Assembly: GCA_001770725.1 (NCBI GenBank)
Contig: MERU01000007.1
Coordinates: 108,924 to 172,923, forward strand
Length of the DNA: 64,000 nt
Direction: 5' to 3'
Source of the DNA: Burkholderiales bacterium RIFCSPHIGHO2_01_FULL_63_240
GTDB lineage: Bacteria > Pseudomonadota > Gammaproteobacteria > Burkholderiales > Burkholderiaceae_C
The position numbers and the translations under genes are program-made. Positions 6,494-15,619 of the stretch are shown in pieces; the first letter of the stretch is position 1, and each line of letters begins with the position of its first letter. Under the pieces are notes generated by a model. That model worked only from the letters and a program-made list of their open reading frames with translations. It made no database searches and was not told where the DNA came from.

Positions 6494-7129
6494 TCAGCGC
6501 TTGAGGAAGGGGTTGAACCGGCGTTCTTCCCCGAAGGTGCTCTCGGGCCCGTGACCGGGCGTGAAGGTGATGTCGTCGCCCAGGGGCAGCAGGTGCTGCG
6601 TGATGGCGCGGATCAGGTCGCCGTGGTTGCCGCCGGGGAAGTCGGTGCGACCGATGCCGCCGTTGAACAGCACATCGCCCACGAAGGCGTGGCGCGTGCC
6701 ACCGTGGAAGAACACGACGTGGCCTGGCGTGTGGCCAGGGCAGTGCAGCACCTTCAGCGTCTGCTTGCCGATGCTGACTTCATCGCCATCGTGCAACCAG
6801 CGCGTGGGCGTGAAGGGCTCGGCTTGCGGAAAGCCGAACATCTGGCTTTGCTGGGGCAGGGCGTCGATCCAGAACTGGTCGCCTTCGTGGGGGCCGACGA
6901 TGGGCAAGGCCAGCGTGCGCGCCAGCGTGCCGGTGCCCCCCGCGTGGTCGATGTGGGCATGCGTCAGCCACAGCGCCTTGAGCGTCAGACCGCGCTCTTC
7001 GACGGCCTGCAGCAGCACGCCGATGTCGCCACCCGGGTCGATCAGGGAGGCCTCGTTGGTCTCGTCACACCAGACGAGGGAGCAGTTCTGTTCGAAGGCG
7101 GTGACGGGGAGGGTGAGGCGGTGGAGCAT
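6494..7129 (-). CDS. MBL-fold hydrolase (GloB/YcbL-like hydroxyacylglutathione hydrolase family)
   Basis: THAHIDHAGG metal-binding motif. Start placed at MLHRLTLPV (7129) because the 14 extra codons of the ORF are encoded by the AT-rich inverted-repeat element at 7141-7187. Confidence 0.8.
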   Translation of the reverse strand: MLHRLTLPVTAFEQNCSLVWCDETNEASLIDPGGDIGVLLQAVEERGLTLKALWLTHAHIDHAGGTGTLARTLALPIVGPHEGDQFWIDALPQQSQMFGFPQAEPFTPTRWLHDGDEVSIGKQTLKVLHCPGHTPGHVVFFHGGTRHAFVGDVLFNGGIGRTDFPGGNHGDLIRAITQHLLPLGDDITFTPGHGPESTFGEERRFNPFLKR

Positions 7130-7140
7130 GCCGTCTGCGT

Positions 7141-7187
7141 AGGAATCGGACAACAAAGTTTTAAAACTCAAAACATAGTCTCAAAAC
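7141..7187. repeat. Left terminal inverted repeat of the island
   Basis: AGGAATCGGACAACAAAGT + 20-nt insert + CTCAAAAC. The reverse complement of 13348-13375 is AGGAATCGGATAACAAAGTCTCAAAACC (18/19 plus 8/8 match). Confidence 0.6.
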
Positions 7188-7516
7188 GCTTTGATTTGAA
7201 ACGACTTTTGAGAGCGTAGCACTCTGTGGGCAGAGTGCCCATTCAAATGCGCCACTTCGGCCAGTGATCAGCCCCTTCCCGGTCAGATGGGATTTTCATC
7301 GGATGAAAGCGGGCTGAGGGCCTTTCCAGGCTGGGTGCGGTCATGCCCAGCTGACAGGCACCAAGCTCGTGTCACTGAACAGCTCGGCCACTGCGAGGCG
7401 AACCAAGGTGCATTGCTCCATTCTGGCCCGTCGCGAGTTGAGCAGGTCACAGCGACTTATCAAGATGCTGGGCATGACCTGGTCACCCTGACCGCCTGCC
7501 ACATTGAACATGTCAG

Positions 7517-7558
7517 CATCAAATAAAACGGGGCGTCCGTCTTGAAACGAACGCCCCG
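7517..7558 (-). terminator. Rho-independent terminator after rtcB
   Basis: On the minus strand, stem CGGGGCGT...ACGCCCCG is followed by GTTTTATTTGAT, immediately 3' of the rtcB stop. Confidence 0.7.
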
Positions 7559-7580
7559 GCTAGTGGGCACAATAGATCTG

Positions 7581-8798
7581 TCATCCCTTGACACACACCA
7601 CCTGCTTGAGCGTGTGCACCACATCGACAAGGTCACGCTGAGCCTCCATCACCGCATCAATGTCCTTGTACGCGGCCGGGGTCTCATCGATCACATCCTT
7701 GTCCTTGCGGCACTCGACGCCCTCGGTGGCCGTACGGTGGTCAGCCAGAGTGAAGCGGCGCTTTGCCTCGCCACGGCTCATGACACGACCGGCCCCGTGT
7801 GAGCAACTCTCGAAGCTCTCTGGGTTGCCCTTGCCACGCACGATGTAGCTGCGCGCGCCCATGCTGCCCGGGATGATGCCCAGCTGACCGGCCTTGGCGC
7901 TCACCGCACCCTTGCGGGTCACAAAAATTTCCTCGCCAAAGTGATGCTCGCGCTGCACGTAGTTGTGGTGACAATTCACGGCCTCGATGTGGCTTTGGAA
8001 GTTCTTGCGGATCACGGTCTTGGCAGCCTCGATCACGCGGCGCATCATCACCTCACGGTTGATGGCGGCGAACTTCTGCGCCCAGCCGACGCCGCGTACG
8101 TAGTCACCAAAGTAGCGGCTGCCTTCTTCGAAGTAGGCCAGATCGCGGTCGGGCAGGTTGGCGTTGTTGCGCATCGCATCTTGCTTGGCCAGTTCGATGA
8201 ACATGGTGCCAATGAAGTTGCCCACGCCACGCGAACCTGAGTGCAGCATGAACCACACGGCACCTTGCTCGTCCAGGCAGACTTCGATGAAGTGGTTGCC
8301 CGTACCGAGCGTGCCCAGGTGATTGCGGTTGTTGGTCTTGGCGATCTTGGGATAGTCGCGGCACAGTTCGGTGAACTCGGGCTCCAGTTGCGCCCAGGCC
8401 GTGTCGACCGAACCTGGCACCTTTTGCCAGGCACCTGGATCACGGTTGCCTGGTGCGCGACCATGCGGCACGGCACGTTCGATGGCGGCGCGCAGCGGGC
8501 CCAGGTTGTCAGGCAGGTCTTCAGCTGTCAGCGTGGTCTTGCAGGCCATCATGCCGCAGCCGATGTCCACACCCACCGCAGCCGGGATGATGGCCTTGAT
8601 GGTGGGAATGACCGAACCGACGGTCGCTCCGATACCAAAGTGCACATCCGGCATGGCTGCAATGTGTTTGAACACGACAGGCAGACGGGCCGCATTGATG
8701 AGCTGGCGACGGGCTTCGTCTTCCACGGGCACACCGCGCGTCCACATCTTCACCGGCACGCCACCAAGCGTGTCTTCTTCGATGTAATTCGTTTCCAT
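7581..8798 (-). CDS. rtcB: RtcB-family RNA 3'-phosphate/2',3'-cyclic-phosphate ligase
   Basis: 405 aa. Hallmark motifs AAMPDVHFGIGATVGSV, GCGMMA, GTLGTGNHFIE, HSGSRG and SCSHGAGR. Confidence 0.95.
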   Translation of the reverse strand: METNYIEEDTLGGVPVKMWTRGVPVEDEARRQLINAARLPVVFKHIAAMPDVHFGIGATVGSVIPTIKAIIPAAVGVDIGCGMMACKTTLTAEDLPDNLGPLRAAIERAVPHGRAPGNRDPGAWQKVPGSVDTAWAQLEPEFTELCRDYPKIAKTNNRNHLGTLGTGNHFIEVCLDEQGAVWFMLHSGSRGVGNFIGTMFIELAKQDAMRNNANLPDRDLAYFEEGSRYFGDYVRGVGWAQKFAAINREVMMRRVIEAAKTVIRKNFQSHIEAVNCHHNYVQREHHFGEEIFVTRKGAVSAKAGQLGIIPGSMGARSYIVRGKGNPESFESCSHGAGRVMSRGEAKRRFTLADHRTATEGVECRKDKDVIDETPAAYKDIDAVMEAQRDLVDVVHTLKQVVCVKG

Positions 8799-8862
8799 GA
8801 TTTATCTCATTCTTCCGTAAATGGAGGCGGCATGGCCGCCTCTGTGTAATGCCCTCGCTGAT

Positions 8863-10005
8863 CTAGGCCTTGAGCTTGACCAAGCCATTGAGGACCTGAT
8901 CCAGACCTCCGAACACGGAGATCTTGTCGATGCGCTCGGCAACACGCTCCAGCGTCTCCAGCTCCTTCATGCGCAAAGCGACAGGGTTGCCCTCCATCAC
9001 CTTGGCGGTGTTGAGCAAGGAACGCGTGGCAGCGGTTTCCTCACGGCGACGGATCACGTTGGCCTGAGCAGCCTTTTCGGCTTCAACGACTTGCGCCAGG
9101 ATGGTCTTCATCTCGCCGGGCAGTACGATGTCCTTCACGCCGGCTGTTTCCAGATCGATGCCATAAGCCACCAAGCGTGCCTTGACGTGTGCCATCACGA
9201 CCTCATCGATCACGGTCTTGTTCTCCAGCAGCTCATCGAGCGTGCGCGTACCCACGGCCGATCGCAAACCGAACTGCAGCTCACGGTACAGGTGTTCCGC
9301 GGGCTTTTGCAGCTGCGTGTAGGCCTTGAGTACATCGGTGAAGCGCCACGATGCCGACAGGTTCAGGCGCAGGCCGACCTTGTCCTTGGTGAGGATGTCC
9401 TGGCCGGACACCTCCACCACCTGCAGACGCAAGTCCACCAGCTCGACCGAAACGTTGCGGTTGTACTTCCAGAAGCCGTAAGAGCCCGGCTTCAGAAGCG
9501 AGTCCACCTTGCCGTCGACATGCAGCACGCCCACGCCGTACTCGGGCACCTGCACGGTCAGCACACCAATCAGACCAGCGACCTGGCGTTGACGCATCTG
9601 CGTCTGCGTCAGGCGCGCCACCAGTTCAGCAGGAAGCTCGGCGTGGTTGCTGATGTCCAGCACATCAACCTTGACCTCGTGCAGGCCCTTCCAGTACAGA
9701 CGGCGCGTGGTGGGCGCCAGCAACTCAACCAGTACACCGTTCTCATAGCGCAAGCCCACCTCGGTTTCCTTGAGGTCGACGCGCACGAACTCGGCTTCCA
9801 CCACAGCAGGCTCCTTGGCCATCAAATAGTCGGCCAGGCCGTGCGCGAAGGCGGACTGCTCCAGCGAGAATGTCTCGACACGCACATCGCTCAGTGCCGT
9901 GGCCAGCCAGTGACGGCCAGGCTGCAGCACGCGCTCGAAGTCGCCATTGCGCAGCAGCAGGCCACGCTCGTTCTTTTTGACAGTGAAACGTTTGAATCCC
10001 AACAT
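8863..10005 (-). CDS. SPFH/band-7 (slipin-like) protein with a ~200-aa N-terminal extension
   Basis: Start MLGFKRF at 10005 preceded by AAGGAGAAG. The C-terminal half carries an SPFH core and a coiled region (VVEAEKAAQANVIRRREETAATR...NPVALRMKELETLERVA). Confidence 0.8.
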   Translation of the reverse strand: MLGFKRFTVKKNERGLLLRNGDFERVLQPGRHWLATALSDVRVETFSLEQSAFAHGLADYLMAKEPAVVEAEFVRVDLKETEVGLRYENGVLVELLAPTTRRLYWKGLHEVKVDVLDISNHAELPAELVARLTQTQMRQRQVAGLIGVLTVQVPEYGVGVLHVDGKVDSLLKPGSYGFWKYNRNVSVELVDLRLQVVEVSGQDILTKDKVGLRLNLSASWRFTDVLKAYTQLQKPAEHLYRELQFGLRSAVGTRTLDELLENKTVIDEVVMAHVKARLVAYGIDLETAGVKDIVLPGEMKTILAQVVEAEKAAQANVIRRREETAATRSLLNTAKVMEGNPVALRMKELETLERVAERIDKISVFGGLDQVLNGLVKLKA

Positions 10006-10240
10006 GGGCTTCTCCTTCTTGTTTGTATGAGGGTGCCGATACAGCACTGGCTGCGGACAAGGAAGGCCTTGGCTCAGGCATGGCGGATTCGCGGTGTGTC
10101 TTCCTCCCAGATCGACACGTCGCTTGGCCACCTGCGCGAGCCACGCGTTTTCCTTGCACAAGCCACCAGCGCTGACAGATGGCAAGCCATCTGCGTTCGG
10201 CGGAGGTCTTTCGACCGGCTTTTTGGCAACCTTCGCAGGG

Positions 10241-10314
10241 TTGTTGGTACGGGAATCGAACCCGTGACAGACGCATTACAAGTGCGTTGCTCTACCCGAC
10301 TGAGCTAACCAATG
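10241..10314 (-). tRNA. tRNA-Thr(UGU)-like, with non-pairing 1:72 and 2:71
   Basis: Hand fold: D arm GCTC/GAGC, anticodon arm ACGCA-CTTGTAA-TGCGT, T arm ACGGG-TTCGATT-CCCGT. Acceptor CATTGGT/ACCAACA pairs at only 5 of 7 positions. No encoded CCA. Confidence 0.6.
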
Positions 10315-10516
10315 GGTGGCTGCTTGGGAATCGAACCCATCACCGTTGCCGGCGCTGACCACAGACAGCCCAATCAACCGTTTCCAACAGACGCGGCATG
10401 CACCGTGACAACAGGCTTGAACCTGGCCACAGCGCACCGGCGGGGCGGGCTTTCACCCAAACCCCTGACCTGTGAGCGCCCGCCTTTCACGGCAGACTCT
10501 TTGGCGCTTGAACCTC
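10313..10516 (-). ncRNA. Structured non-coding segment ending in a tRNA-like 3' module (T-arm + acceptor strand + CCA)
   Basis: 3' end reads ATGGG-TTCGATT-CCCAA-GCAGCCA-C-CCA (10313-10340). Internal T-arm-like hairpin CAGG-TTCAAG-CCTG (10412-10425). Two GTGAAAG hairpins. No local 5' tRNA half; the only complement (GTGGCTG) is at 10553-10559, inside the HNH 3' end. Confidence 0.3.
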
Positions 10517-11092
10517 TCAGTTCAAGCGCGATCCTTTTGGCAGGCGCGAAGCCAGCCACTCGTGTACATCGGCCCGGATGTGCCTGCCTTGCAGCAGGAA
10601 GTCTTCGAATCGACTGGGCACATAGGGCAGGTACAGCAATGGCATGCGGGCTTCCTCTGGCGTGCGGTTGGCCTTGGCAGCATTGCAGCCAGGGCAGGCC
10701 GTCACCAGATTCATCCACGATGTGGCACCGCCCCGAGAGGCCGGCACGATGTGCTCGCATTGCAGTACGCCCTCAGAGAAGCGATCACCGCAGTAGGCAC
10801 AAACACACCGGTCACGCCGAAAGAGCTTCAACCTGTTCAGCGACGGCGCAACCTCAAACAGGTTGATGCGCGAAGCGCCGTTGAGCGCCATGATGGGGAA
10901 GATTTCCATCACGGACGGGCGACCCGTTCGGGCATTGACGCCGCCCCGCAGACGGCGCAGCGGTCCGTCGCCGTCGACCCATGCCACCGAGGCACTGGCC
11001 AGATGGATGGCGGCCTGTTCGACCGTGATCCAGGCTTGTGGCGTGCCTTGAATGTCCAGTTGCAGGACATGCGTTGAGGTACTCGGTGACAT
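10517..11092 (-). CDS. HNH endonuclease (McrA/COG1403-like, ~191 aa)
   Basis: Start MSPSTS at 11092 follows AAGGAGGG by 6-7 nt. HNH core CAYCGDRF...CEHIVPASRGG..WMNLVTACPGCNAAKANRTPEEA. Confidence 0.85.
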   Translation of the reverse strand: MSPSTSTHVLQLDIQGTPQAWITVEQAAIHLASASVAWVDGDGPLRRLRGGVNARTGRPSVMEIFPIMALNGASRINLFEVAPSLNRLKLFRRDRCVCAYCGDRFSEGVLQCEHIVPASRGGATSWMNLVTACPGCNAAKANRTPEEARMPLLYLPYVPSRFEDFLLQGRHIRADVHEWLASRLPKGSRLN

Positions 11093-11119
11093 GGGGAGCC
11101 CTCCTTTCATGGGCAGGTG

Positions 11120-11272
11120 TCAGTGCATGGTGTCGTTGGATCGGCGCAGCTCACGCTTGAGGCGTTGCCGCTCTTGCTTGTTGTTGGGTTGATGATTGCC
11201 TGCTTTGCGTTGCATGGCAGGGGCGACGAGTGGGTTCCTCGGCTTGGAGGTGCCCCGTTTGGGTGTTCTCAT
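11120..11272 (-). CDS. Hypothetical 50-aa highly basic peptide upstream of the HNH gene
   Basis: ATG at 11272 follows AAGGGA. Sequence MRTPKRGTSKPRNPLVAPAMQRKAGNHQPNNKQERQRLKRELRRSNDTMH. No homology recognised; could be non-coding. Confidence 0.3.
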   Translation of the reverse strand: MRTPKRGTSKPRNPLVAPAMQRKAGNHQPNNKQERQRLKRELRRSNDTMH

Positions 11273-11306
11273 GACAAGATCCCTTGCGAACGCGTGGCGG
11301 AACGAA

Positions 11307-11383
11307 TGGCGTCTCGTACGGGAATCGAACCCGTGTTCCGACATTGAAAGCGTCGTGTCCTAGGCCAGCTAGACGAACGAGAC
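11307..11383 (-). tRNA. tRNA-Glu(UUC), CCA encoded
   Basis: GTCTCGT-TC-GTCT-AGCTGGCCTA-GGAC-A-CGACG-CTTTCAA-TGTCG-GAAC-ACGGG-TTCGATT-CCCGT-ACGAGAC-G-CCA. Resembles bacterial tRNA-Glu (TTCGTCTAG...GGAC). Confidence 0.9.
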
Positions 11384-11433
11384 GTAGATGGCTGTGGCTT
11401 CAATCACGCCAGTAGTCATGGCGTTGGCTGCCG

Positions 11434-11642
11434 TCAAAAGCAGCCCGATGTCAGGCAACAGCGCTTGAAATGATTTGGTCGATCCGCAAGGGCATGGGTC
11501 GTTGCGTCCCAGCTTCTCGTGCAGGTACTTGTCACCATGCACGATGCGCTGACCACGCTTGACGCCTGTCTCAGACGGATAGCCCTTACGACGCTTGCTC
11601 GTGACCTCGAAAGCAAGCCTGTTCTTGGCGGTTGAATTTCAT
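11434..11642 (-). pseudogene. Small SEC-C-motif protein gene disrupted by two +1 frameshifts
   Basis: RBS AAGGAG plus ATG at 11642 opens an 18-codon frame. The next frame reads ...[55 protein letters not shown] third frame finishes [10 protein letters not shown]. Removing one A from an AAA run and one T from a TTT run restores a 68-aa ORF. Confidence 0.55.
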
Positions 11643-11725
11643 TTTTGACTCCTTGTTGAGTTGCCCCTGTGAACGGCCAGGTGCCTACCGGATGACAGCG
11701 ATATGCGATGCCCAATGCGCTTGGG

Positions 11726-11796
11726 GGTGACCGGCCGGAGTCGAACCGGCACCATCGGAATCACAAACCGAGGCTCTGCCATTGAGCTACGGCCAC
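11726..11796 (-). tRNA. tRNA-His(GUG)-like lacking the encoded G-1
   Basis: GTGGCCG-TA-GCTC-AATGGCA-GAGC-C-TCGGT-TTGTGAT-TCCGA-TGGT-GCCGG-TTCGACT-CCGGC-CGGTCAC-C. Nucleotide -1 is T. The trailer is CCCAA, with no exact CCA. Confidence 0.75.
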
Positions 11797-11826
11797 ACCC
11801 AAGCGCACTGGGCGTTGAAATGGTTG

Positions 11827-11899
11827 TCTCGGAGGACGGGTTCGAACCGCCGACCTGATGCTCCCAAAGCACCCGCGCTACCAACTGCGCTACACCGAG
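11827..11899 (-). tRNA. tRNA-Pro(UGG)
   Basis: CTCGGTG-TA-GCGC-AGTTGGTA-GCGC-G-GGTGC-TTTGGGA-GCATC-AGGTC-GGCGG-TTCGAAC-CCGTC-CTCCGAG-A. C1-G72 and A73 as in bacterial tRNA-Pro. One U-U mismatch at 6:67. No encoded CCA. Confidence 0.8.
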
Positions 11900-11906
11900 A
11901 AACAAC

Positions 11907-11984
11907 TGGCGCCTCCTGCACGACTCGAACGTGCGACCCCTGGCTTCGTAAACCAGTGCTCTGAATCCACTGAGCTAAGGAGGC
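11907..11984 (-). tRNA. tRNA-Arg(ACG), CCA encoded
   Basis: GCCTCCT-TA-GCTC-AGTGGATTCA-GAGC-A-CTGGT-TTACGAA-GCCAG-GGGTC-GCACG-TTCGAGT-CGTGC-AGGAGGC-G-CCA. Confidence 0.9.
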
Positions 11985-12002
11985 AAAGCTGCAGAAACTG
12001 AT

Positions 12003-12078
12003 TGGTGCCGCAGGAGGGATTCGAACTCTCGACGCCCGGCTCTTCAGGCCGGCGCTCTACCAACTGAGCTACCGCGGC
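12003..12078 (-). tRNA. tRNA-Phe(GAA) with G37, CCA encoded
   Basis: GCCGCGG-TA-GCTC-AGTTGGTA-GAGC-G-CCGGC-CTGAAGA-GCCGG-GCGTC-GAGAG-TTCGAAT-CCCTC-CTGCGGC-A-CCA. A-C mismatch at 52:62. Position 37 is G. Confidence 0.8.
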
Positions 12079-12092
12079 ATGGGAATAGGTTG

Positions 12093-12168
12093 TGGCGCTT
12101 CGTGCGGGAGTCGAACCCGCGGCTTCCGGCTAGACAGGCCGGCACTCTGGCCACTGAGTTAACGAAGC
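12093..12168 (-). tRNA. tRNA-Asp(GUC) with U37, CCA encoded
   Basis: GCTTCGT-TA-ACTC-AGTGGCCA-GAGT-G-CCGGC-CTGTCTA-GCCGG-AAGCC-GCGGG-TTCGACT-CCCGC-ACGAAGC-G-CCA. Anticodon stem is identical to the neighbouring tRNA-Phe. Confidence 0.8.
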
Positions 12169-12401
12169 AAGGTATCCACTTCGGCTGTGCCCAAGCGCGA
12201 GCACTCATGGACGGCAGTCCAGAGTCGATGTCTCGCTGCATGTGGATCCGGGCCCGGACCACACACATCCCTTGCCACCGACACCAGCGTTACGCGTGTG
12301 ACTCGGAGTGCAAGGACACACCCGAAGTGGAGCGAACGGCGAACCATTCGCTACTTGTGCGAAATGTCTGCTTGCGTGTAGGCAAGACATCTCGCGGCAA
12401 A

Positions 12402-12414
12402 TTGTTAAAGAGCG
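12402..12414 (-). promoter_or_regulatory. rrn-type boxA (NusB/NusE antitermination element) in the leader of the tRNA array
   Basis: The minus strand reads CGCTCTTTAACAATTT. The E. coli rrn boxA, as I recall it, is TGCTCTTTAACAATTT. Confidence 0.65.
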
Positions 12415-12429
12415 ACACCTGTGAGGTGC

Positions 12430-12447
12430 GGCGATCCGTTGATCGCC
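12430..12447 (-). promoter_or_regulatory. boxB-like hairpin just upstream of boxA
   Basis: Minus strand GGCGATC-AACG-GATCGCC is a perfect 7-bp stem, 15 nt 5' of boxA. The boxB-then-boxA order matches rrn leaders. Confidence 0.5.
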
Positions 12448-12480
12448 AGGGTGCGTAACGAGCACGCAGTGAAGGTGGTG

Positions 12481-12523
12481 AGGAAAAGCGAAGAGGCCCG
12501 GATCCTTTTGGAATCCGGGCCTC
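12481..12523 (-). terminator. Intrinsic terminator or attenuator between the 66-aa ORF and the boxB/boxA leader
   Basis: Minus strand GAGGCCCGGAT(T)CC-AAAA-GGATCCGGGCCTC is followed by TTCGCTTTTCCT. Confidence 0.55.
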
Positions 12524-12553
12524 TGCTTGAGAGAGCTAGGAGGGGCGTGCGCC

Positions 12554-12754
12554 TTACGCGTCAACGACTCCCTCACCCGGTTGCACCTGATCCTCATGTC
12601 CACGGATGTACGCATCCCGCTTGGCATGGGATGGTTCAAACTGGAACGCGATCAAGCACGGGCGGCTGCCATACAACATCGCGGCAGCCGCACGCACGAA
12701 CGCGCTCTGGCCCATGAGGGGCAGGCGGTTGGTGGTGTTCAGTCTGGATTTCAC
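12554..12754 (-). CDS. Hypothetical 66-aa protein, divergent from the HTH regulator (Cro-like position)
   Basis: GTG at 12754 lies 6 nt after AAAGGA, and the ORF is followed by the hairpin terminator. No family recognised. Confidence 0.4.
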   Translation of the reverse strand: MKSRLNTTNRLPLMGQSAFVRAAAAMLYGSRPCLIAFQFEPSHAKRDAYIRGHEDQVQPGEGVVDA

Positions 12755-12835
12755 GATGTGTCCTTTGAAAATCTGCGTCAGTTGTTTGGTTTGATCTAGC
12801 CAAGCTTCATCTCGAAACTTGACAATGGATGAAAT

Positions 12836-12852
12836 GGTAAAGACTCTTTACC
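12836..12852. promoter_or_regulatory. 17-bp perfect palindrome (candidate operator)
   Basis: GGTAAAGA-C-TCTTTACC, in the divergent intergenic region. Confidence 0.45.
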
Positions 12853-12883
12853 GAGCTGTCAACGCCCTGCGACAATGGTGCTA

Positions 12884-12900
12884 TTGCCAATTTGTGGCAA
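12884..12900. promoter_or_regulatory. Palindrome TTGCCA-N5-TGGCAA abutting the regulator ATG (candidate operator)
   Basis: TTGCCAATTTGTGGCAA, whose last A is the A of the ATG at 12900. GACAATGG also occurs twice, 50 bp apart (12821 and 12871). Confidence 0.4.
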
Positions 12901-13286
12901 TGCTCACACCAGCCATCTTGAACAACATCACCGTGACACGCCGGCGTAACGCGCTGGCGCTATTCCAAAGCTTTGCAGAAGAAGCCTTGGCTTCGGGCAC
13001 GCCTCCCAAAGGGCTGGAGCAATCGTTCGCGCAAAAGCTGGAAATTTCCCCCAGCATGTGGAGTCAGATCAAGTCGTCCAGGCCTATCGGCGACAAGATG
13101 GCCAGGCAGATTGAACAGCACTGCATCAAGCCACCTGGGTGGCTTGATGAAGAGAGGGAGAGCGTCGGTCTCACGCCAGCGGAGCAACAGTTCCTGGCAT
13201 TGGCCTTACAGGCGTGGCGGTCCACTAACACGGCTGGCCGCAAGGCATTGCGTGAGCACCTTAAGAGCAGCTTGGCCAAGACCTGA
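12900..13286 (+). CDS. Phage-repressor-like (Cro/CI, XRE-type) HTH regulator
   Basis: ...FAQKLEISPSMWSQIKSSRPIGDKMARQIEQHCIKPPGWLDE is a typical XRE HTH plus the GWLD tail. An alternative TTG start at 12819 would place two palindromes inside the coding sequence. Confidence 0.7.
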   Translation: MLTPAILNNITVTRRRNALALFQSFAEEALASGTPPKGLEQSFAQKLEISPSMWSQIKSSRPIGDKMARQIEQHCIKPPGWLDEERESVGLTPAEQQFLALALQAWRSTNTAGRKALREHLKSSLAKT

Positions 13287-13347
13287 CGGCCCACTCGGTG
13301 CAGACCTAAATGAATACAAAAGACCTTCAGCAACCTCCCTAGGCACC

Positions 13348-13375
13348 GGTTTTGAGACTTTGTTATCCGATTCCT
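13348..13375. repeat. Right terminal inverted repeat of the island
   Basis: GGTTTTGAGACTTTGTTATCCGATTCCT is the reverse complement of the 7141-7187 element, allowing one mismatch and one 20-nt indel. Confidence 0.6.
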
Positions 13376-13426
13376 CTTCGTGGAGGTGAAATGACGTGGG
13401 GGGCGTACCGCCGCAGCCAGCGTGGG

Positions 13427-15619
13427 TCAGGCTGGTGGTGGATGGCTGAGCCACTTGAGCAAGGTCGCAAAGAGCTGGGCGCGATCGATGGGCTTGGCGA
13501 TGTGGTCGACCATGCCTGCAGCCAGGCAGAGCTGTTTGTCTTCCTCGAAGGCGTTGGCCGTCATGGCAAGGATGGGCGTGGCCTGATTGAGCCCACCGCC
13601 CAGGATCGCCCGCGTGGCGTCCAGCCCGTTGAGATGGGGCATCTGCATGTCCATCAGGATGAGGGCATAGCGGTTGCGGCGGGCCAGCTCGACGGCCTGC
13701 TCACCGTCTTCGGCCAGGTCGACCGTCAGCCCGACGTGCTCCAGCAGGCACCGCGAGACTTCCTGGTTGATGGGCTCGTCCTCCGCCAGCAGGACCTTGG
13801 CGGAGGCAAACCGCTGCCGCAGTTGGGCCTCGTCCGATGACTGGGCGAGTGGGGGCGTCGGTGCAAGCGATGTCGCGTCGGCTGGCGCCTTGTCGAGCCT
13901 CACGGTGAACCAGAAGGTGCTGCCTGAGCCCGTCTGGCTCTGGACCCCGATGTCCCCGCCCATCAGCCGCACCAGACGCTTGCTGATGGCCAGCCCGAGC
14001 CCGGTGCCGCCATACCTGCGGGTCATGGAGCCATCGGCCTGCTCGAAGTCCGTGAACAGCTTTGCCTGGTCTTCCGGGGCGATGCCGATGCCGGTGTCGA
14101 TGACCTCCCAGCGCAGCAGCAGGTCTTTGTCCGTGTCCTCCGCGATGCGGCAACGCAAGGTGACGTGGCCCTCCTGCGTGAACTTGATGGCATTGCTGAC
14201 CAGGTTGAGCAGCACCTGGCCGAGTCGAGTCGGATCGCCTGTGACACGGAGGTCGCCCAGGCCGGGGGAAAGGTCCACGCGCAGGCGCAGCCCCTTTTCC
14301 GTCGCCTTGTGACCAACGATGGTCAGCAGGTGGTCCACGACCTCCCTGATCTGCAAGTCCACGCGCTCCAGCACGAGGCGTTCGGCTTCGATCTTGGAGA
14401 TGTCGAGGATGTCGTTGATCAGGTGCAGCAGGTGCTGCGAGGCCTTGTCCGCCTTCTCGAGGTAATCGCGTTGCTTGGGATGGGTGGCGAGGTGCAGGGC
14501 CAGGCCGGTCATGCCCATGATCCCGTTCAAGGGCGTGCGCAGTTCGTGGCTCATGTTGGCCAGGAAGGTGCTCTTGGCGCGGCTGGCGGCTTCGGCGGCG
14601 TCCCTGGCCTGGATCAGTTCCAGCTTGGACAATCGCAACTCGGTGTTCGATGTTTCCGCGGCGTCCTTCGCGGCCTGCAGTTCGGCCGTTCGTTCGTGCA
14701 CAAGGGCCGCCAGGTGCTGGTGATAGGCCTGCAGCTCGATTTCAGCCAGGTTGCGTCGGTGGGCGTACTGAGCCAGCAAGAGCATCGGCCCCACGCTCAG
14801 CAGGAGCGCCAGCGCAAACCCGAGCCGGATGGTCCAGGTTTGGCCTTGGTCGTCGGGCCACCCGCCGCGAGGCCTCGCCGCGATCTGCCACGAGCCAGTG
14901 GGCAGGGTGATGGGCAGGGTCACGCCCTGGCCGGCAAAGAGGGTCGGGTCGCCGTGGAACACCTCGCCCTGCTCGCCTTTGCCATCCTTGCCGCGCAGGG
15001 CCACCTCGATCGGCAGGCTGTCGTCGTGCAGCCCGCTTTGTTGATACAGGCGATCGACCTCGAGGACGACGGACAGCAGCCCCCAGAAGCGGCGACCTTT
15101 CTCACCTTCGTCGAGGGTGACGGGGATGCGGGCGATCATGCCCTTGCCGCCTTGAACCAGGTCAAGGGGACCGGCGATGACGAGGGAGTTGGTGTCGCGG
15201 GCCAGTTCGGCGGCGGCCCGCTGGGCGGGGTTGCGGGCGTACTCGAGGCCGATCACCTTTTCGTTGCCGGCCAGGGGGTACACCAGGCGCACCACCATGT
15301 CCGGGGCCGCAGCGATGCTGCGCAGCACGTTGGGGCCTTCGAACAGGGGTTTGGCCGCCCTCTCGAAGTCACGTTGGGTCAAATCGGGTTTGGATGCGAT
15401 CACGGCCACCAGGCCGCGCGAGAGCAGGATGTTGCCGGTCAACTGGCTTTCGAGCCGGGCCTGCAGGATGAGCAGGTGTTCGCGCACCTGGGTCTCGGCC
15501 TCCACGCGCAGCGTGTGCTGGCGTTGCCGCTCGACGAAATAGGCTGCCAGCACCAGCACCACGGCTGTGGTGCATGCCGCCAGGACAATCTGCCAGACCC
15601 CTTTGTAGCGAACATGCAT
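13427..15619 (-). CDS. Hybrid sensor histidine kinase/response regulator with a periplasmic CHASE-like domain
   Basis: Start MHVRYKG at 15619. TM helix, CHASE-like region, second TM helix, coiled coil, HisKA ([16 protein letters not shown]), HATPase (GTGLGLAIS), and C-terminal REC ([10 protein letters not shown]...DMQMPHLNG). Confidence 0.9.

Follow-up and report, generated by a model that had tools for sequence, protein, structure and literature searches.

Unusual nucleotides of array tRNAs in a Burkholderiales chromosomal island appear to be conserved signatures of a tRNA-array operon with HNH, slipin and RtcB genes

The short tRNA array of Burkholderiales bacterium RIFCSPHIGHO2_01_FULL_63_240 contains tRNA genes that break canonical identity and structure rules, and comparison with related loci argues that the key departures are conserved properties of an array-type tRNA lineage. 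The window analyzed here is a stretch of 64,000 nucleotides of this genome (contig MERU01000007.1, positions 108,924 to 172,923). Across related arrays the unusual nucleotides are conserved and the stems covary, the array is linked to a recurring set of operon partners, the same genome holds canonical housekeeping twins, and the arrays of relatives are present in RNA libraries. The explanation that we somewhat favor for the whole is that selection maintains intact spare tRNAs in a mobile operon, with inherited signatures and a stress-replacement role, their putative purpose probably being to keep translation going when the normal tRNAs are damaged.

Results

A remnant tRNA array in a chromosomal island

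Detection of tRNAs combined ARAGORN with the Rfam model RF00005, and odd positions were checked on the ARAGORN folds and by direct reading. This analysis gives five minus-strand tRNAs at 11726-12168, together with a tRNA-Glu and a Thr-like element (Table 1). Each of the six array anticodons is also served by a housekeeping gene elsewhere in the genome, such that the array adds no new anticodon. The six tRNAs represent a remnant, given that relatives hold up to 23 in the same order. The operon runs from an XRE-type switch through a small ORF, an attenuator, the tRNA array, an HNH nuclease, a tRNA-like RNA and a slipin/Band-7 gene to an RtcB ligase. Island GC content is 58-62%, against 67-70% for the genome. 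Family searches with Pfam and PHROG reveal no phage structural or integrase genes in the island, and the encoding element is a chromosomal island and not a phage. Isotypes were compared by pairwise identity with anticodons masked, which is weakly informative. The island tRNAs are 68-78% identical to any housekeeping tRNA and are therefore foreign rather than recent duplicates.

Table 1 Features of the island, with positions in the window
Feature	Position	Strand	Remarks
tRNA-Asp(GUC), array type	12093..12168	-	A10:U25, U37 (12132), A38, G73, CCA encoded; Rfam 65.6 bits
tRNA-Phe(GAA)	12003..12078	-	G37 (12042), A52.C62; Rfam 66.8 bits
tRNA-Arg(ACG)	11907..11984	-	canonical loop; Rfam 61.1 bits
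tRNA-Pro(UGG)	11826..11899	-	U6.U67, CCA not encoded; Rfam 59.9 bits
tRNA-His(GUG)	11726..11796	-	U-1 (11797), C73 (11726), then CCC not CCA; Rfam 61.3 bits
tRNA-Glu(UUC)	11307..11383	-	A38 vs housekeeping C38; Rfam 54.4 bits
His helix, 5' leader strand	11798..11813	-	MFE fold and covariation
His helix, 3' trailer strand	11710..11725	-	contains C74-C76; MFE fold and covariation
tRNA-like RNA ('tRNA-Thr UGU')	10239..10314	-	C1.A72, A2.C71, no CCA; 58.8 bits; candidate band-7-associated tRNA
Divergent HTH (XRE/cI-like) regulator gene	12819..13286	+	PHROG transcriptional repressor families, E 2.6e-8 and 7e-7
Sigma-70-like promoter facing array operon	12834..12862	-	TTGACA-17-TACCAT, 10/12; consensus match only
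66-aa ORF, operon head	12554..12754	-	tblastn 71-86% identity in Aquabacterium loci
Hairpin and T-run (putative terminator/attenuator), between 66-aa ORF and tRNA leader	12492..12524	-	14-bp stem, 9 GC pairs, then TCGCTTTTCC
Frameshifted SEC-C-motif minigene	11434..11642	-	CPCGS...KRCC motif split over two frames
50-aa very basic ORF, upstream of HNH	11120..11272	-	tblastn 70-96% identity in six related loci; no family match
HNH nuclease, 191 aa, array-associated type	10517..11092	-	Pfam HNH_5 and HNH
Slipin / SPFH (Band-7) protein, about 380 aa	8863..10005	-	Pfam Band_7, E 7e-29
RtcB RNA ligase	7581..8798	-	Pfam RtcB, E 5e-128
Terminator-like hairpin after rtcB, operon end	7529..7558	-	13-bp stem, then TTTTATTTGA

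Array tRNAs differ from their housekeeping twins outside the anticodon

An earlier note, based on hand folding, had listed unusual nucleotides in these tRNAs, and inspection of the folds confirms that they are present. tRNA-His carries T at -1 together with C73 (11797/11726), and additionally has a U31.U39 mismatch and CCC in place of CCA. The tRNA-Asp loop reads CUGUCUA with an A10:U25 pair, where housekeeping tRNA-Asp has CUGUCAC and G10:U25; tRNA-Phe has G37 in the loop CUGAAGA, where the housekeeping loop is UUGAAAA. The U6.U67 mismatch of tRNA-Pro is likewise found, in a gene that does not encode CCA. The A52.C62 mismatch noted for tRNA-Phe exists as described; it is nonetheless unremarkable because housekeeping tRNA-Thr and tRNA-Pro of the same genome carry A52.C62 too.

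Among the tRNAs of this genome, a pyrimidine at position 37 occurs in array tRNA-Asp alone, and this U37 exceeds chance expectation. U33 is kept in all six array tRNAs, and the five other than Asp have a purine at 37. Relative to the housekeeping loops, differences fall at 37 and 38 in Asp, 32 and 37 in Phe, 38 in Glu and 32 in Arg, whereas the tRNA-His loop equals the housekeeping loop in this strain and is variable in relatives. Identity elements are kept in Glu (D stem U11:A24 and U13:G22), Pro (C1:G72/A73), Phe (A73) and Asp (G73). Overall, loop changes concentrate at 32/33/37/38, with the anticodons and most of the identity elements preserved. Under the identity rules of E. coli, G-1 is the major HisRS determinant and the determinants of tRNA-Asp include G10 and C38. 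By these rules, array His lacks the major HisRS determinant G-1, and array Asp lacks both G10 and C38.

Two shared segments had also been noted, and both are present. Phe and Asp have the anticodon stem G26-CCGGC-CUG...A-GCCGG in common and differ at 35-37 only, and Glu and the Thr-like element have CACGGGTTCGATTCCCGTAC in common. The accompanying proposal of intra-array duplication followed by anticodon switching stands in part: one relative carries a chimeric Asp/Phe/Arg tRNA, and the Thr-like body occurs with at least 14 anticodons. Against switching, the Thr-like element is a tRNA-like RNA and not a decoding tRNA, and the stem common to Phe and Asp is limited to Aquabacterium.

Signatures are conserved in related arrays

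Comparisons were made over 80 related Burkholderiales loci, chosen by their HNH gene from 348 loci found overall. The Asp loop CUGUCUA recurs in 39 of 41 related arrays and A10:U25 in all 41; among 594 array tRNAs of these loci, a pyrimidine at 37 is found in Asp only (41/41). Other isoacceptors carry signatures of their own, including Phe G37 (22/24 arrays), Leu-CAG A37 (43/43) and Gly-GCC C33 (16/22), with C33 seen in some Gly, Val and His array tRNAs of relatives. Glu carries a base other than the housekeeping one at position 38 in 98% of 43 arrays. Housekeeping-like loops are kept in the Arg-ACG, Arg-CCG, Pro, Asn, Lys-UUU, Trp, Tyr and Met array tRNAs of relatives, and the Arg(ACG) loop matches its housekeeping counterpart in 42 of 50 arrays. 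The array-type tRNA-Asp (A10:U25, U37, A38) and the isoacceptor-specific loop signatures (Phe G37, Leu-CAG A37, Gly C33) appear to be new here.

Array stems are 97.8-99.1% canonical by cell across the 80 loci, with compensatory double changes at 8-15 of 21 stem pairs; the Glu anticodon stem, for example, shows a compensatory swap in relatives G004 and G009. In the same two relatives tRNA-Pro has U6:A67 and an encoded CCA, and G025 has the U.U mismatch with CCA kept. The Pro mismatch and lost CCA of the present copy therefore read as local lesions.

The earlier note had considered decay equally possible and had suggested covariance-model scores as a check. These scores speak against decay: array tRNAs reach 54.4-66.8 bits, merely 4-5 bits under their housekeeping twins (58-71.3 bits) and well clear of the RF00005 gathering score of 29, and model positions 1-71 are matched in all of them. 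The idea that the tRNAs are decaying pseudogenes finds only local defects in its favor (Pro U6.U67 and missing CCA, Phe A52.C62, His U31.U39 and the frameshifted minigene), of which A52.C62 recurs in housekeeping tRNAs. It is contradicted by the high scores and by the conservation of each key oddity in 22-45 loci, spread over dozens of species, with stems held by compensatory change. Neither the loss of structure nor the absence of purifying selection that marks tRNA pseudogenes is seen, and we regard decay as very improbable. Still less credence, next to none, goes to the reading that every tRNA of the lineage shares the unusual nucleotides, which the earlier note had named as the outcome that would make them unremarkable. 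No support for it was found: this genome has canonical housekeeping copies of Asp, Phe, His, Glu and Pro, and across the genus a canonical Asp anticodon arm is present in 35 of 41 genomes, with the U37 arm only in four, all of them island carriers that hold a canonical Asp copy too, where assembled.

tRNA-His lies within a covarying leader/trailer helix

The MFE fold places a 16-bp helix of leader and trailer directly on the acceptor stem of tRNA-His (-65.5 kcal/mol, z -5.5). The helix abuts the acceptor stem with only -1/73 unpaired, and the CCA position is taken into the helix. Over 48 distinct sequences, 12 of the pairs are 97.7% paired, and both-side changes occur at four pairs along paths of the type G:C to G.U to A:U. 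The covariation score of the whole structure, tRNA stems included, was reached by 0 of 500 shuffles. In related arrays the -1 position is T in 45 of 58 cases, position 73 is C in 58 of 58, and the tail is CCC in 45 of 58; among 23 isoacceptors, the leader/trailer helix was found for His alone. The same genome retains a canonical G-1/C73 tRNA-His. Post-transcriptional addition of G-1 was considered and rejected, given that the genome contains no Thg1 family gene. A tRNA-His lacking G-1 within a covarying 12-16 bp leader/trailer helix appears to be new here.

Leader-trailer processing helices of bacterial rRNA operons are RNase III substrates. The His helix resembles these in that the flanks of a stable RNA pair in a long helix with compensatory change, and differs in that a single tRNA is clamped. 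The helix may replace G-1:C73 in steering 5'-end processing, either through an RNase P cut one nucleotide upstream or through a prior cut by a double-strand nuclease.

Operon partners and the tRNA-like RNA

The order of regulator, array, HNH and downstream slipin and/or RtcB is seen in most of the 80 loci. HNH adjoins the array in 80 of 80 loci, which were selected by HNH. A regulator homologue lies upstream of array/HNH in 54 of 80 loci, of which 25 have slipin and RtcB and 21 have RtcB only. For the 66-aa ORF, family searches gave no match. The SEC-C minigene segment is wholly missing from relatives G004 and G009.

The HNH protein has 1217 homologues at 70-77% identity, a level of conservation across genera that does not look like a fast-decaying homing gene. 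Its core resembles PtuB (E 1e-9), and it is 44% identical over the core (E 8e-19) to the HNH encoded beside the Anabaena trn array. Further relatives occur in tRNA-rich phages and plasmids; HNH relatives in Ralstonia phage RsoM2USA and Acaryochloris plasmid pREB6 have no nearby tRNA genes. The genome's core HNH paralogue is surrounded by unrelated genes. The AlphaFold model of HNH, built from 12 near-identical sequences, is unusable (mean pLDDT 39).

Slipin homologues of 378-380 aa are named slipin family, and Foldseek with a weak model (pLDDT 51.6) ranks stomatin and HflK/C on top, with major vault protein at rank 17. The N-terminal part gives an Atlas hint of vault-like repeats (0.81-0.84), a lead that has no Pfam Vault match. 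No second rtcB was found by tblastn of the whole genome, and RtcB, slipin, the regulator and the small ORFs were all without a PADLOC match.

Between HNH and slipin, a tRNA-like RNA is found in 28 of 80 loci, and its body carries at least 14 different anticodons over these 28 loci. A Ro60/Y-RNA (YrlA) module was tried and rejected: the genome has no TROVE match, and YrlA hits of 20-26 bits (gathering score 69) arise where a T arm and the D arm that comes after it together mimic a match.

Distribution and RNA-library coverage

Island flanks differ from species to species. Array size over related loci ranges from 0 to 23 tRNAs, from which it follows that arrays erode, and in one relative the array is collapsed and chimeric. 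Two viral contigs (with 12 and 27 tRNAs) carry array-type Asp, and one of the two has a homologous His with U-1 and a leader/trailer helix. RNA-library contigs from three studies cover the array, leader and 66-aa ORF at 93-97% identity; these derive from relatives and not from this strain, their strand, ends and level are not readable, and DNA carry-over is possible. One such contig (12093-12543) spans the hairpin upstream of the tRNAs. In run X16 the HNH and regulator stretches lack cover, and this was not taken as evidence.

Discussion

A spare tRNA set with a possible replacement role

The array tRNAs and tRNA-Glu would represent a shortened copy of a horizontally mobile Burkholderiales tRNA-array operon maintained by selection. 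Their odd nucleotides would be inherited from an array-type lineage, which for Asp and His includes the viral-contig type, and would not be damage; the signatures are A10:U25/U37/A38 in Asp, G37 in Phe, a base other than C38 in Glu, and the His without G-1 in its helix. We infer that the operon is normally repressed and turned on upon translation or tRNA damage, such that replacement tRNAs would come from the array and cut RNA would be resealed by RtcB. Through its changes at 32/33/37/38, the spare set may be insensitive to an agent that inactivates the housekeeping set; candidates are a nuclease or toxin that acts on the anticodon loop, and a dependence on position-37 modification (i6A in Phe, m1G in Leu). 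The earlier suggestion of nuclease-evading variants is plausible and fits the pattern, in that changes fall at 32/33/37/38, anticodons are kept, and the operon includes RtcB. The genome yielded no tRNA-targeting nuclease. Nor does the pattern map onto determinants of known E. coli anticodon nucleases, since the loops of Tyr, Asn, Lys-UUU and Arg-ACG show no change.

A stronger form of this reading is speculative, and we would give it a minor share of belief. Under this form, an insulated second tRNA set (Asp U37/A38, Phe G37, Leu-CAG A37, Gly/Val C33, Glu/Gln 38) would be hidden from nucleases, toxins and modification dependencies, and the His helix would set the 5' end of a tRNA charged without G-1, an undescribed bacterial route.

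Points counted against the spare-set explanation are the His without G-1, the Asp without G10/C38, the missing Thg1 and the missing nuclease. Array erosion (0-23) and the local lesions (Pro U6.U67, lost CCA, frameshifted minigene) are counted likewise.

Two other accounts deserve weight, each of which we consider unlikely. The array RNAs may not be decoders at all, and may instead act as decoys, sensors or cofactors, for instance as nuclease sponges or as slipin/RtcB partners in the manner of Y RNAs with Ro60. The operon does include a true tRNA mimic between the HNH and slipin genes; its acceptor end is open and its anticodon varies freely, as fits the predicted band-7-associated tRNA. The identity elements missing from His and Asp, together with the sponge role raised by the Anabaena authors, point the same way. 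Long arrays, however, contain up to 23 tRNAs whose anticodons are ordinary and which together make an almost complete set for decoding, 516 of 597 array tRNAs encode CCA, isotype identity elements are kept in Glu, Pro, Phe and Asp, and 23 of 26 Anabaena array tRNAs are aminoacylated in vivo.

The array may alternatively be a passenger of a phage-descended selfish element, its oddities being phage-shaped, tolerated and eroding without host benefit. Such an origin would suit the Asp and His types in viral contigs, the HNH relatives in tRNA-rich phages and plasmids, the spread in array size from 0 to 23, the collapsed chimeric array of one relative and the local lesions of this copy. It sits poorly with purifying selection and compensatory changes within Burkholderiales chromosomes, with stable linkage to a dedicated regulator and the genome's only RtcB, with an HNH conserved at 70-77% identity across genera, and with an island that carries no phage structural or integrase genes.

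Bacterial immunity and interbacterial toxins are now known to have tRNAs among their main targets, with phage tRNAs serving as counter-measures; the operon would represent the bacterial side, as regulated, mobile, spare tRNAs joined to an RNA ligase. Spare and housekeeping sets differ in concrete, conserved ways that are testable nucleotide by nucleotide. Two textbook rules are touched: the near-universal purine 37, with U37 fixed in one tRNA-Asp lineage (41/41 Burkholderiales arrays and two viral contigs), and the G-1 identity element of tRNA-His, with U-1 inside a covarying precursor helix instead. If the array tRNAs are charged, the known substrate range of AspRS, HisRS and RNase P would be wider, and the array would show how a cell translates on while its normal tRNAs are attacked.

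Relation to known systems

Known tRNA-His types without an encoded G-1 comprise an alphaproteobacterial group (PMC3064791) and the (8/4) tRNA-His of phages (PMC5389517). In these, position 73 is A (or U) and HisRS has co-evolved, whereas array His has an invariant C73 and thus does not show the alphaproteobacterial combination of absent G-1, A73 and adapted HisRS. Its acceptor and T stems are of the ordinary 7/5 kind, unlike the (8/4) phage type, and the leader/trailer helix belongs to array His and is absent from both systems.

Phage tRNAs have been proposed or shown to escape tRNA-targeting defenses (eLife 2023, PMC10264068), as with T5 tRNA-Lys versus PARIS (PMC11464382) and tRNA-Tyr versus the retron Eco7 PtuAB (PMC11555353). 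The island tRNAs resemble these as extra isoacceptors whose loops depart from those of the host outside the anticodon; viral contigs contain homologues of array-type Asp and His, and the island HNH core is PtuB-like. In contrast to phage-encoded evading tRNAs, they lie on the chromosome in an island free of phage genes, which joins them to an RNA ligase and a host-type repressor switch. Mycobacterial tRNA array units (PMC5966550, PMC12803027) are likewise mobile arrays with a neighboring HNH gene and have been discussed as a putative anti-defense device; they belong to another phylum and to plasmids and phages, and no slipin/RtcB operon partner is reported for them in these papers.

A close likeness is to the trn operon of Anabaena PCC 7120, an L-array that translation inhibitors induce and in which 23 of 26 tRNAs are charged in vivo, with a sponge role raised by its authors (PMC8421152). 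That array is co-regulated with HNH, RtcB and slipin genes by TrcR (PMC10272220). Both systems have same-strand supernumerary tRNAs that duplicate housekeeping isoacceptors, horizontal spread, an adjacent homologous HNH, functional linkage to RtcB and slipin, and repressor control; the PCC 7120 tRNA-Phe also has G37. Of the features by which L-arrays were defined (Santamaria-Gomez et al. 2021), the island shows same-strand tandem isodecoders, patchy horizontal spread and an HNH neighbor. The systems differ in that TrcR commands a dispersed regulon, whereas the island has all parts in one compact operon; TrcR is ribbon-helix-helix, whereas the island regulator is HTH (XRE-like). HNH precedes the Anabaena array and follows that of the island, which unlike the PCC 7120 array has six tRNAs only. 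Anabaena array His has G-1 and Asp has G37, in contrast to the island His without G-1 and Asp with U37. The only features that would speak to L-array-like silence and induction here are the repressor-like gene, the promoter-like site, the attenuator hairpin and the RNA-library contigs of relatives.

A Band-7/b7a-tRNA/RtcB repair system was predicted by Burroughs and Aravind (Nucleic Acids Res 2016;44:8525), as related in bioRxiv 10.1101/312249. As far as that account goes, the likeness lies in an rtcB that adjoins a Band-7 (SPFH) gene and a tRNA-like RNA directly beside the Band-7 gene, both of which the operon has; the prediction as described there comes without a spare decoding array, HNH or XRE-type switch, and the overlap may be larger. 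In the operon, the stress regulon of the cyanobacterial L-array and TrcR comes together with the Band-7/b7a-tRNA/RtcB repair system of that prediction.

Array tRNAs and their housekeeping twins

The array tRNAs form a mobile, conserved set of spares linked to an RNA-repair operon. On the minus strand, ARAGORN calls seven tRNA genes in the window (see table), and all seven match the Rfam tRNA model over their full length at 54.4-66.8 bits (gathering score 29). An earlier note had described several of them as breaking identity and structure rules, through decay or nuclease evasion. Inspection of the ARAGORN folds and raw sequence bears out all of these details: tRNA-His has T at -1 together with C73, tRNA-Asp has A10:U25 and the loop CUGUCUA (U37 at 12132, A38), and tRNA-Pro has a U6.U67 mismatch. 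The Phe and Asp anticodon arms are indeed identical save positions 35-37, and a 20-nt T-arm block is common to tRNA-Glu and the Thr-like gene. For tRNA-Phe, G37 stands (12042, loop CUGAAGA); A52.C62 is present but unremarkable, since housekeeping Thr and Pro of the source genome share it. The folds also reveal U31.U39 in tRNA-His, CCC in place of CCA at its 3' end, and a tRNA-Pro without encoded CCA.

Features of the island and its operon in window coordinates (tRNA genes called by ARAGORN)
Feature	Position	Strand	Remarks
Terminator	7529-7558	-	
RtcB	7581-8798	-	
Slipin/SPFH protein	8863-10005	-	
tRNA-Thr(UGU), Thr-like element	10239-10314	-	between HNH and slipin
T-arm-like module	10318-10370		beside Thr-like element
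HNH nuclease	10517-11092	-	
Basic ORF, 50 aa	11120-11272	-	directly upstream of HNH
tRNA-Glu(UUC)	11307-11383	-	
SEC-C-motif minigene	11434-11642	-	between His and Glu; broken by frameshifts
tRNA-His(GUG)	11724-11796	-	end of run Asp-Phe-Arg-Pro-His
tRNA-Pro(UGG)	11826-11899	-	
tRNA-Arg(ACG)	11907-11984	-	
tRNA-Phe(GAA)	12003-12078	-	
tRNA-Asp(GUC)	12093-12168	-	start of run
Leader, ~320 nt	12169-12491	-	between attenuator hairpin and first tRNA
Strong hairpin and T-run	12492-12524	-	
66-aa ORF	12554-12754	-	
HTH repressor-like gene	12819-13286	divergent	faces sigma-70-like promoter

The note had itself named a lineage trait as the reading that would make these nucleotides ordinary. That reading is rejected. 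Each island anticodon also occurs in a housekeeping gene elsewhere in the source genome (4.12 Mb, 67% GC), and these twins are canonical, with CCA encoded throughout: Asp has the loop CUGUCAC and G10:U25, Phe UUGAAAA, Glu CUUUCAC, and His an encoded G-1 with C73. Among 41 Aquabacterium genomes, 35 hold the canonical Asp anticodon arm and the U37 arm is confined to four island carriers. The island tRNAs share just 68-78% identity with any housekeeping tRNA and score 4-5 bits below their twins in the covariance model; they are therefore foreign, intact genes. Decay, given equal weight in the note, is likewise rejected on these near-twin scores, the conservation of the oddities and the compensated stems. 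Across distinct sequences from related loci, array tRNA stems are 97.8-99.1% canonical, with double compensatory changes in 8-15 of 21 stem pairs; for Aquabacterium taken by itself, compensatory changes have rebuilt the anticodon stems of His and Glu in otherwise identical tRNAs. Defects of local extent are Pro U6.U67 (otherwise in one relative only, G025), the loss of CCA from Pro, and Phe A52.C62, which is confined to Aquabacterium.

The unusual nucleotides are recurrent and specific to the isoacceptor. Array tRNAs of related loci keep the Asp loop CUGUCUA (39/41) and A10:U25 (41/41), G37 in Phe (22/24), A37 in Leu-CAG (43/43; housekeeping, G37) and C33 in Gly-GCC (16/22). Position 38 is changed in 98% of Glu, and Gln is changed at position 32 (100%) and at 38 (97%). 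Arg-ACG, Arg-CCG, Pro, Asn, Lys-UUU, Trp, Tyr and Met retain housekeeping-like loops, and a pyrimidine at 37 occurs in Asp only among 594 array tRNAs. By analogy with phage tRNAs (PMC10264068), the most economical reading is that the loop edits may serve escape from nucleases or from modification dependence.

Operon layout and related loci

The island (~7000-14000) has 58-62% GC within DNA of 67-70% GC. No phage or integrase genes were found in it, and no second rtcB was found in the source genome, where the island RtcB is the sole copy. Other Aquabacterium species have the block 7580-13290 at ~91% identity; its flanks differ, except that one species shares the left flank. Close homologues of the HNH protein number 1217. 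Scanning one genome per species gave 348 loci, of which 80 were fetched. Most of these follow the order regulator, tRNA array (0-23 tRNAs), HNH, an optional single tRNA-like gene (called in 28), then slipin and/or RtcB. The regulator lies upstream of HNH in 54 loci, 25 of which have slipin and RtcB and 21 RtcB only. Long arrays share the order ...Asp-Phe-Arg...Pro-His..., and the window array is a collinear remnant of it. The tRNAs that short arrays most often retain are His (80%) and Arg-ACG (69%), then Glu (63%), Asp and Leu-CAG (57% each), Gln (43%), Phe and Pro (37% each).

Several smaller features accompany this layout. The leader lacks an Rfam match and is ~90% conserved in sister species up to 12351; one RNA-library contig of a relative spans it. 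The very basic 50-aa ORF keeps 70-96% identity across six related loci, and no family match was found for it. The ~310-bp His-Glu segment holding the SEC-C minigene is wholly missing from two sister species. The first ~120 slipin residues are predicted to form two five-stranded beta units, and their language-model features suggest a weak likeness to major-vault-protein repeats, for which sequence and fold searches gave no confirmation. In Aquabacterium G010, the sole remaining array tRNA (locus L025, 104-179) is a well-folding three-way chimera that joins an Asp 5' portion up to G34, the G37-bearing anticodon loop of Phe and a T arm like that of Arg-UCU, which shows recombination between neighbouring array tRNAs.

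The island stretch is present in many groundwater metagenomes. RNA-library contigs from three studies represent close relatives (93-97% identity) and cover the array, the leader, reaching 12543 across the hairpin, and the 66-aa ORF, a hint that the array is transcribed in relatives.

A precursor helix around tRNA-His

The 131-nt His stretch folds at -65.5 kcal/mol (z -5.5); its flanks form a leader/trailer helix of 16 bp that stacks on the acceptor stem and leaves U-1 and C73 alone unpaired. At least 10 of 12 helix pairs form in 52 of 58 related-array His genes, and none of the other 22 isoacceptors of these arrays has such a flank helix. Aligning 48 distinct sequences shows 97.7% pairing over the 12-pair helix; both sides have changed in four pairs, two have changed via G.U intermediates, and the covariation score of the whole structure, tRNA stems included, was reached by 0 of 500 shuffles. 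Paths from G:C through G.U to A:U argue for selection on the RNA rather than on a DNA inverted repeat. In a minority of the arrays, His is ordinary, with G-1 and CCA, and lacks the helix. A Thg1 family gene was not found in the source genome, which has two PolyA_pol-family genes, the CCA-adding enzyme presumably among them. The helix may stand in for the G-1:C73 pair in positioning RNase P cleavage, perhaps after a double-strand-specific cut. Several long arrays (L040, L088, L092, L095, L097) have a ~1.2-1.3-kb insert between tRNA-Pro and tRNA-His, just upstream of the helix-clamped His.

A tRNA-like RNA and an HNH paralogue

The gene called tRNA-Thr(UGU) is a tRNA-like RNA, not a decoder. The window copy has acceptor-end mismatches C1.A72 and A2.C71 and no CCA, which is usually absent in relatives too. 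Across 28 related loci, at least 14 anticodons (UGU, CGU, CAG, CUG, CAU, GAU, CAC, AAC, UUU, CUC, GCA, CGC, GGA, CGG) occur on this one body. Its constant position between HNH and slipin fits the band-7-associated tRNA that Burroughs and Aravind predicted beside Band-7 and RtcB genes, as described in bioRxiv 10.1101/312249, and makes it a candidate for that RNA.

The array HNH has a paralogue in the source genome (contig C6, 137131-137673; locus L110, 6114-6737) at 52-55% identity, among unrelated neighbours (PhoD, TetR, fatty-acid oxidation). Of 301 genomes sampled from the family, 263 have array-HNH matches, mostly of the paralogue class, and the paralogue thus looks like a core gene; it is too strongly conserved to be a selfish homing nuclease.

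Viral contigs and known systems

Among viral contigs, pattern scans picked out two tRNA arrays of 49% GC, IMG/VR 3300025536_000028 (L119, 12 tRNAs) and 3300048930_000242 (L120, 27 tRNAs). Both encode a tRNA-Asp with A10:U25 and the loop CUGUCUA (U37, A38). The tRNA-His of L120 has the acceptor stem of the array His, a U-1:A73 pair and an encoded CCA that lies inside a leader/trailer helix of ~12 bp. The array-type Asp and His thus belong, as old members, to a mobile pool of tRNA genes shared with phage-like contigs.

In the literature searched, there appears to be no description of the fixed U37 of array-type tRNA-Asp, of isoacceptor-specific loop signatures, or of a tRNA-His that lacks G-1 and sits within a covarying precursor helix. 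The kind of island, spare tRNAs with RNA repair, is already known in outline. The trn L-array of Anabaena sp. PCC 7120 is silent and induced by translation inhibitors, with 23 of 26 tRNAs charged in vivo (PMC8421152), and in the TrcR regulon this array is joined by HNH genes, a slipin gene and rtcB (PMC10272220). Plasmid pCC7120delta has an HNH gene with 24 tRNAs directly downstream, and this HNH is 44% identical to that of the window over the core. The Anabaena array Phe has G37, as does the window array Phe, whereas its Asp has G37/A38 in contrast to U37/A38 in the window.
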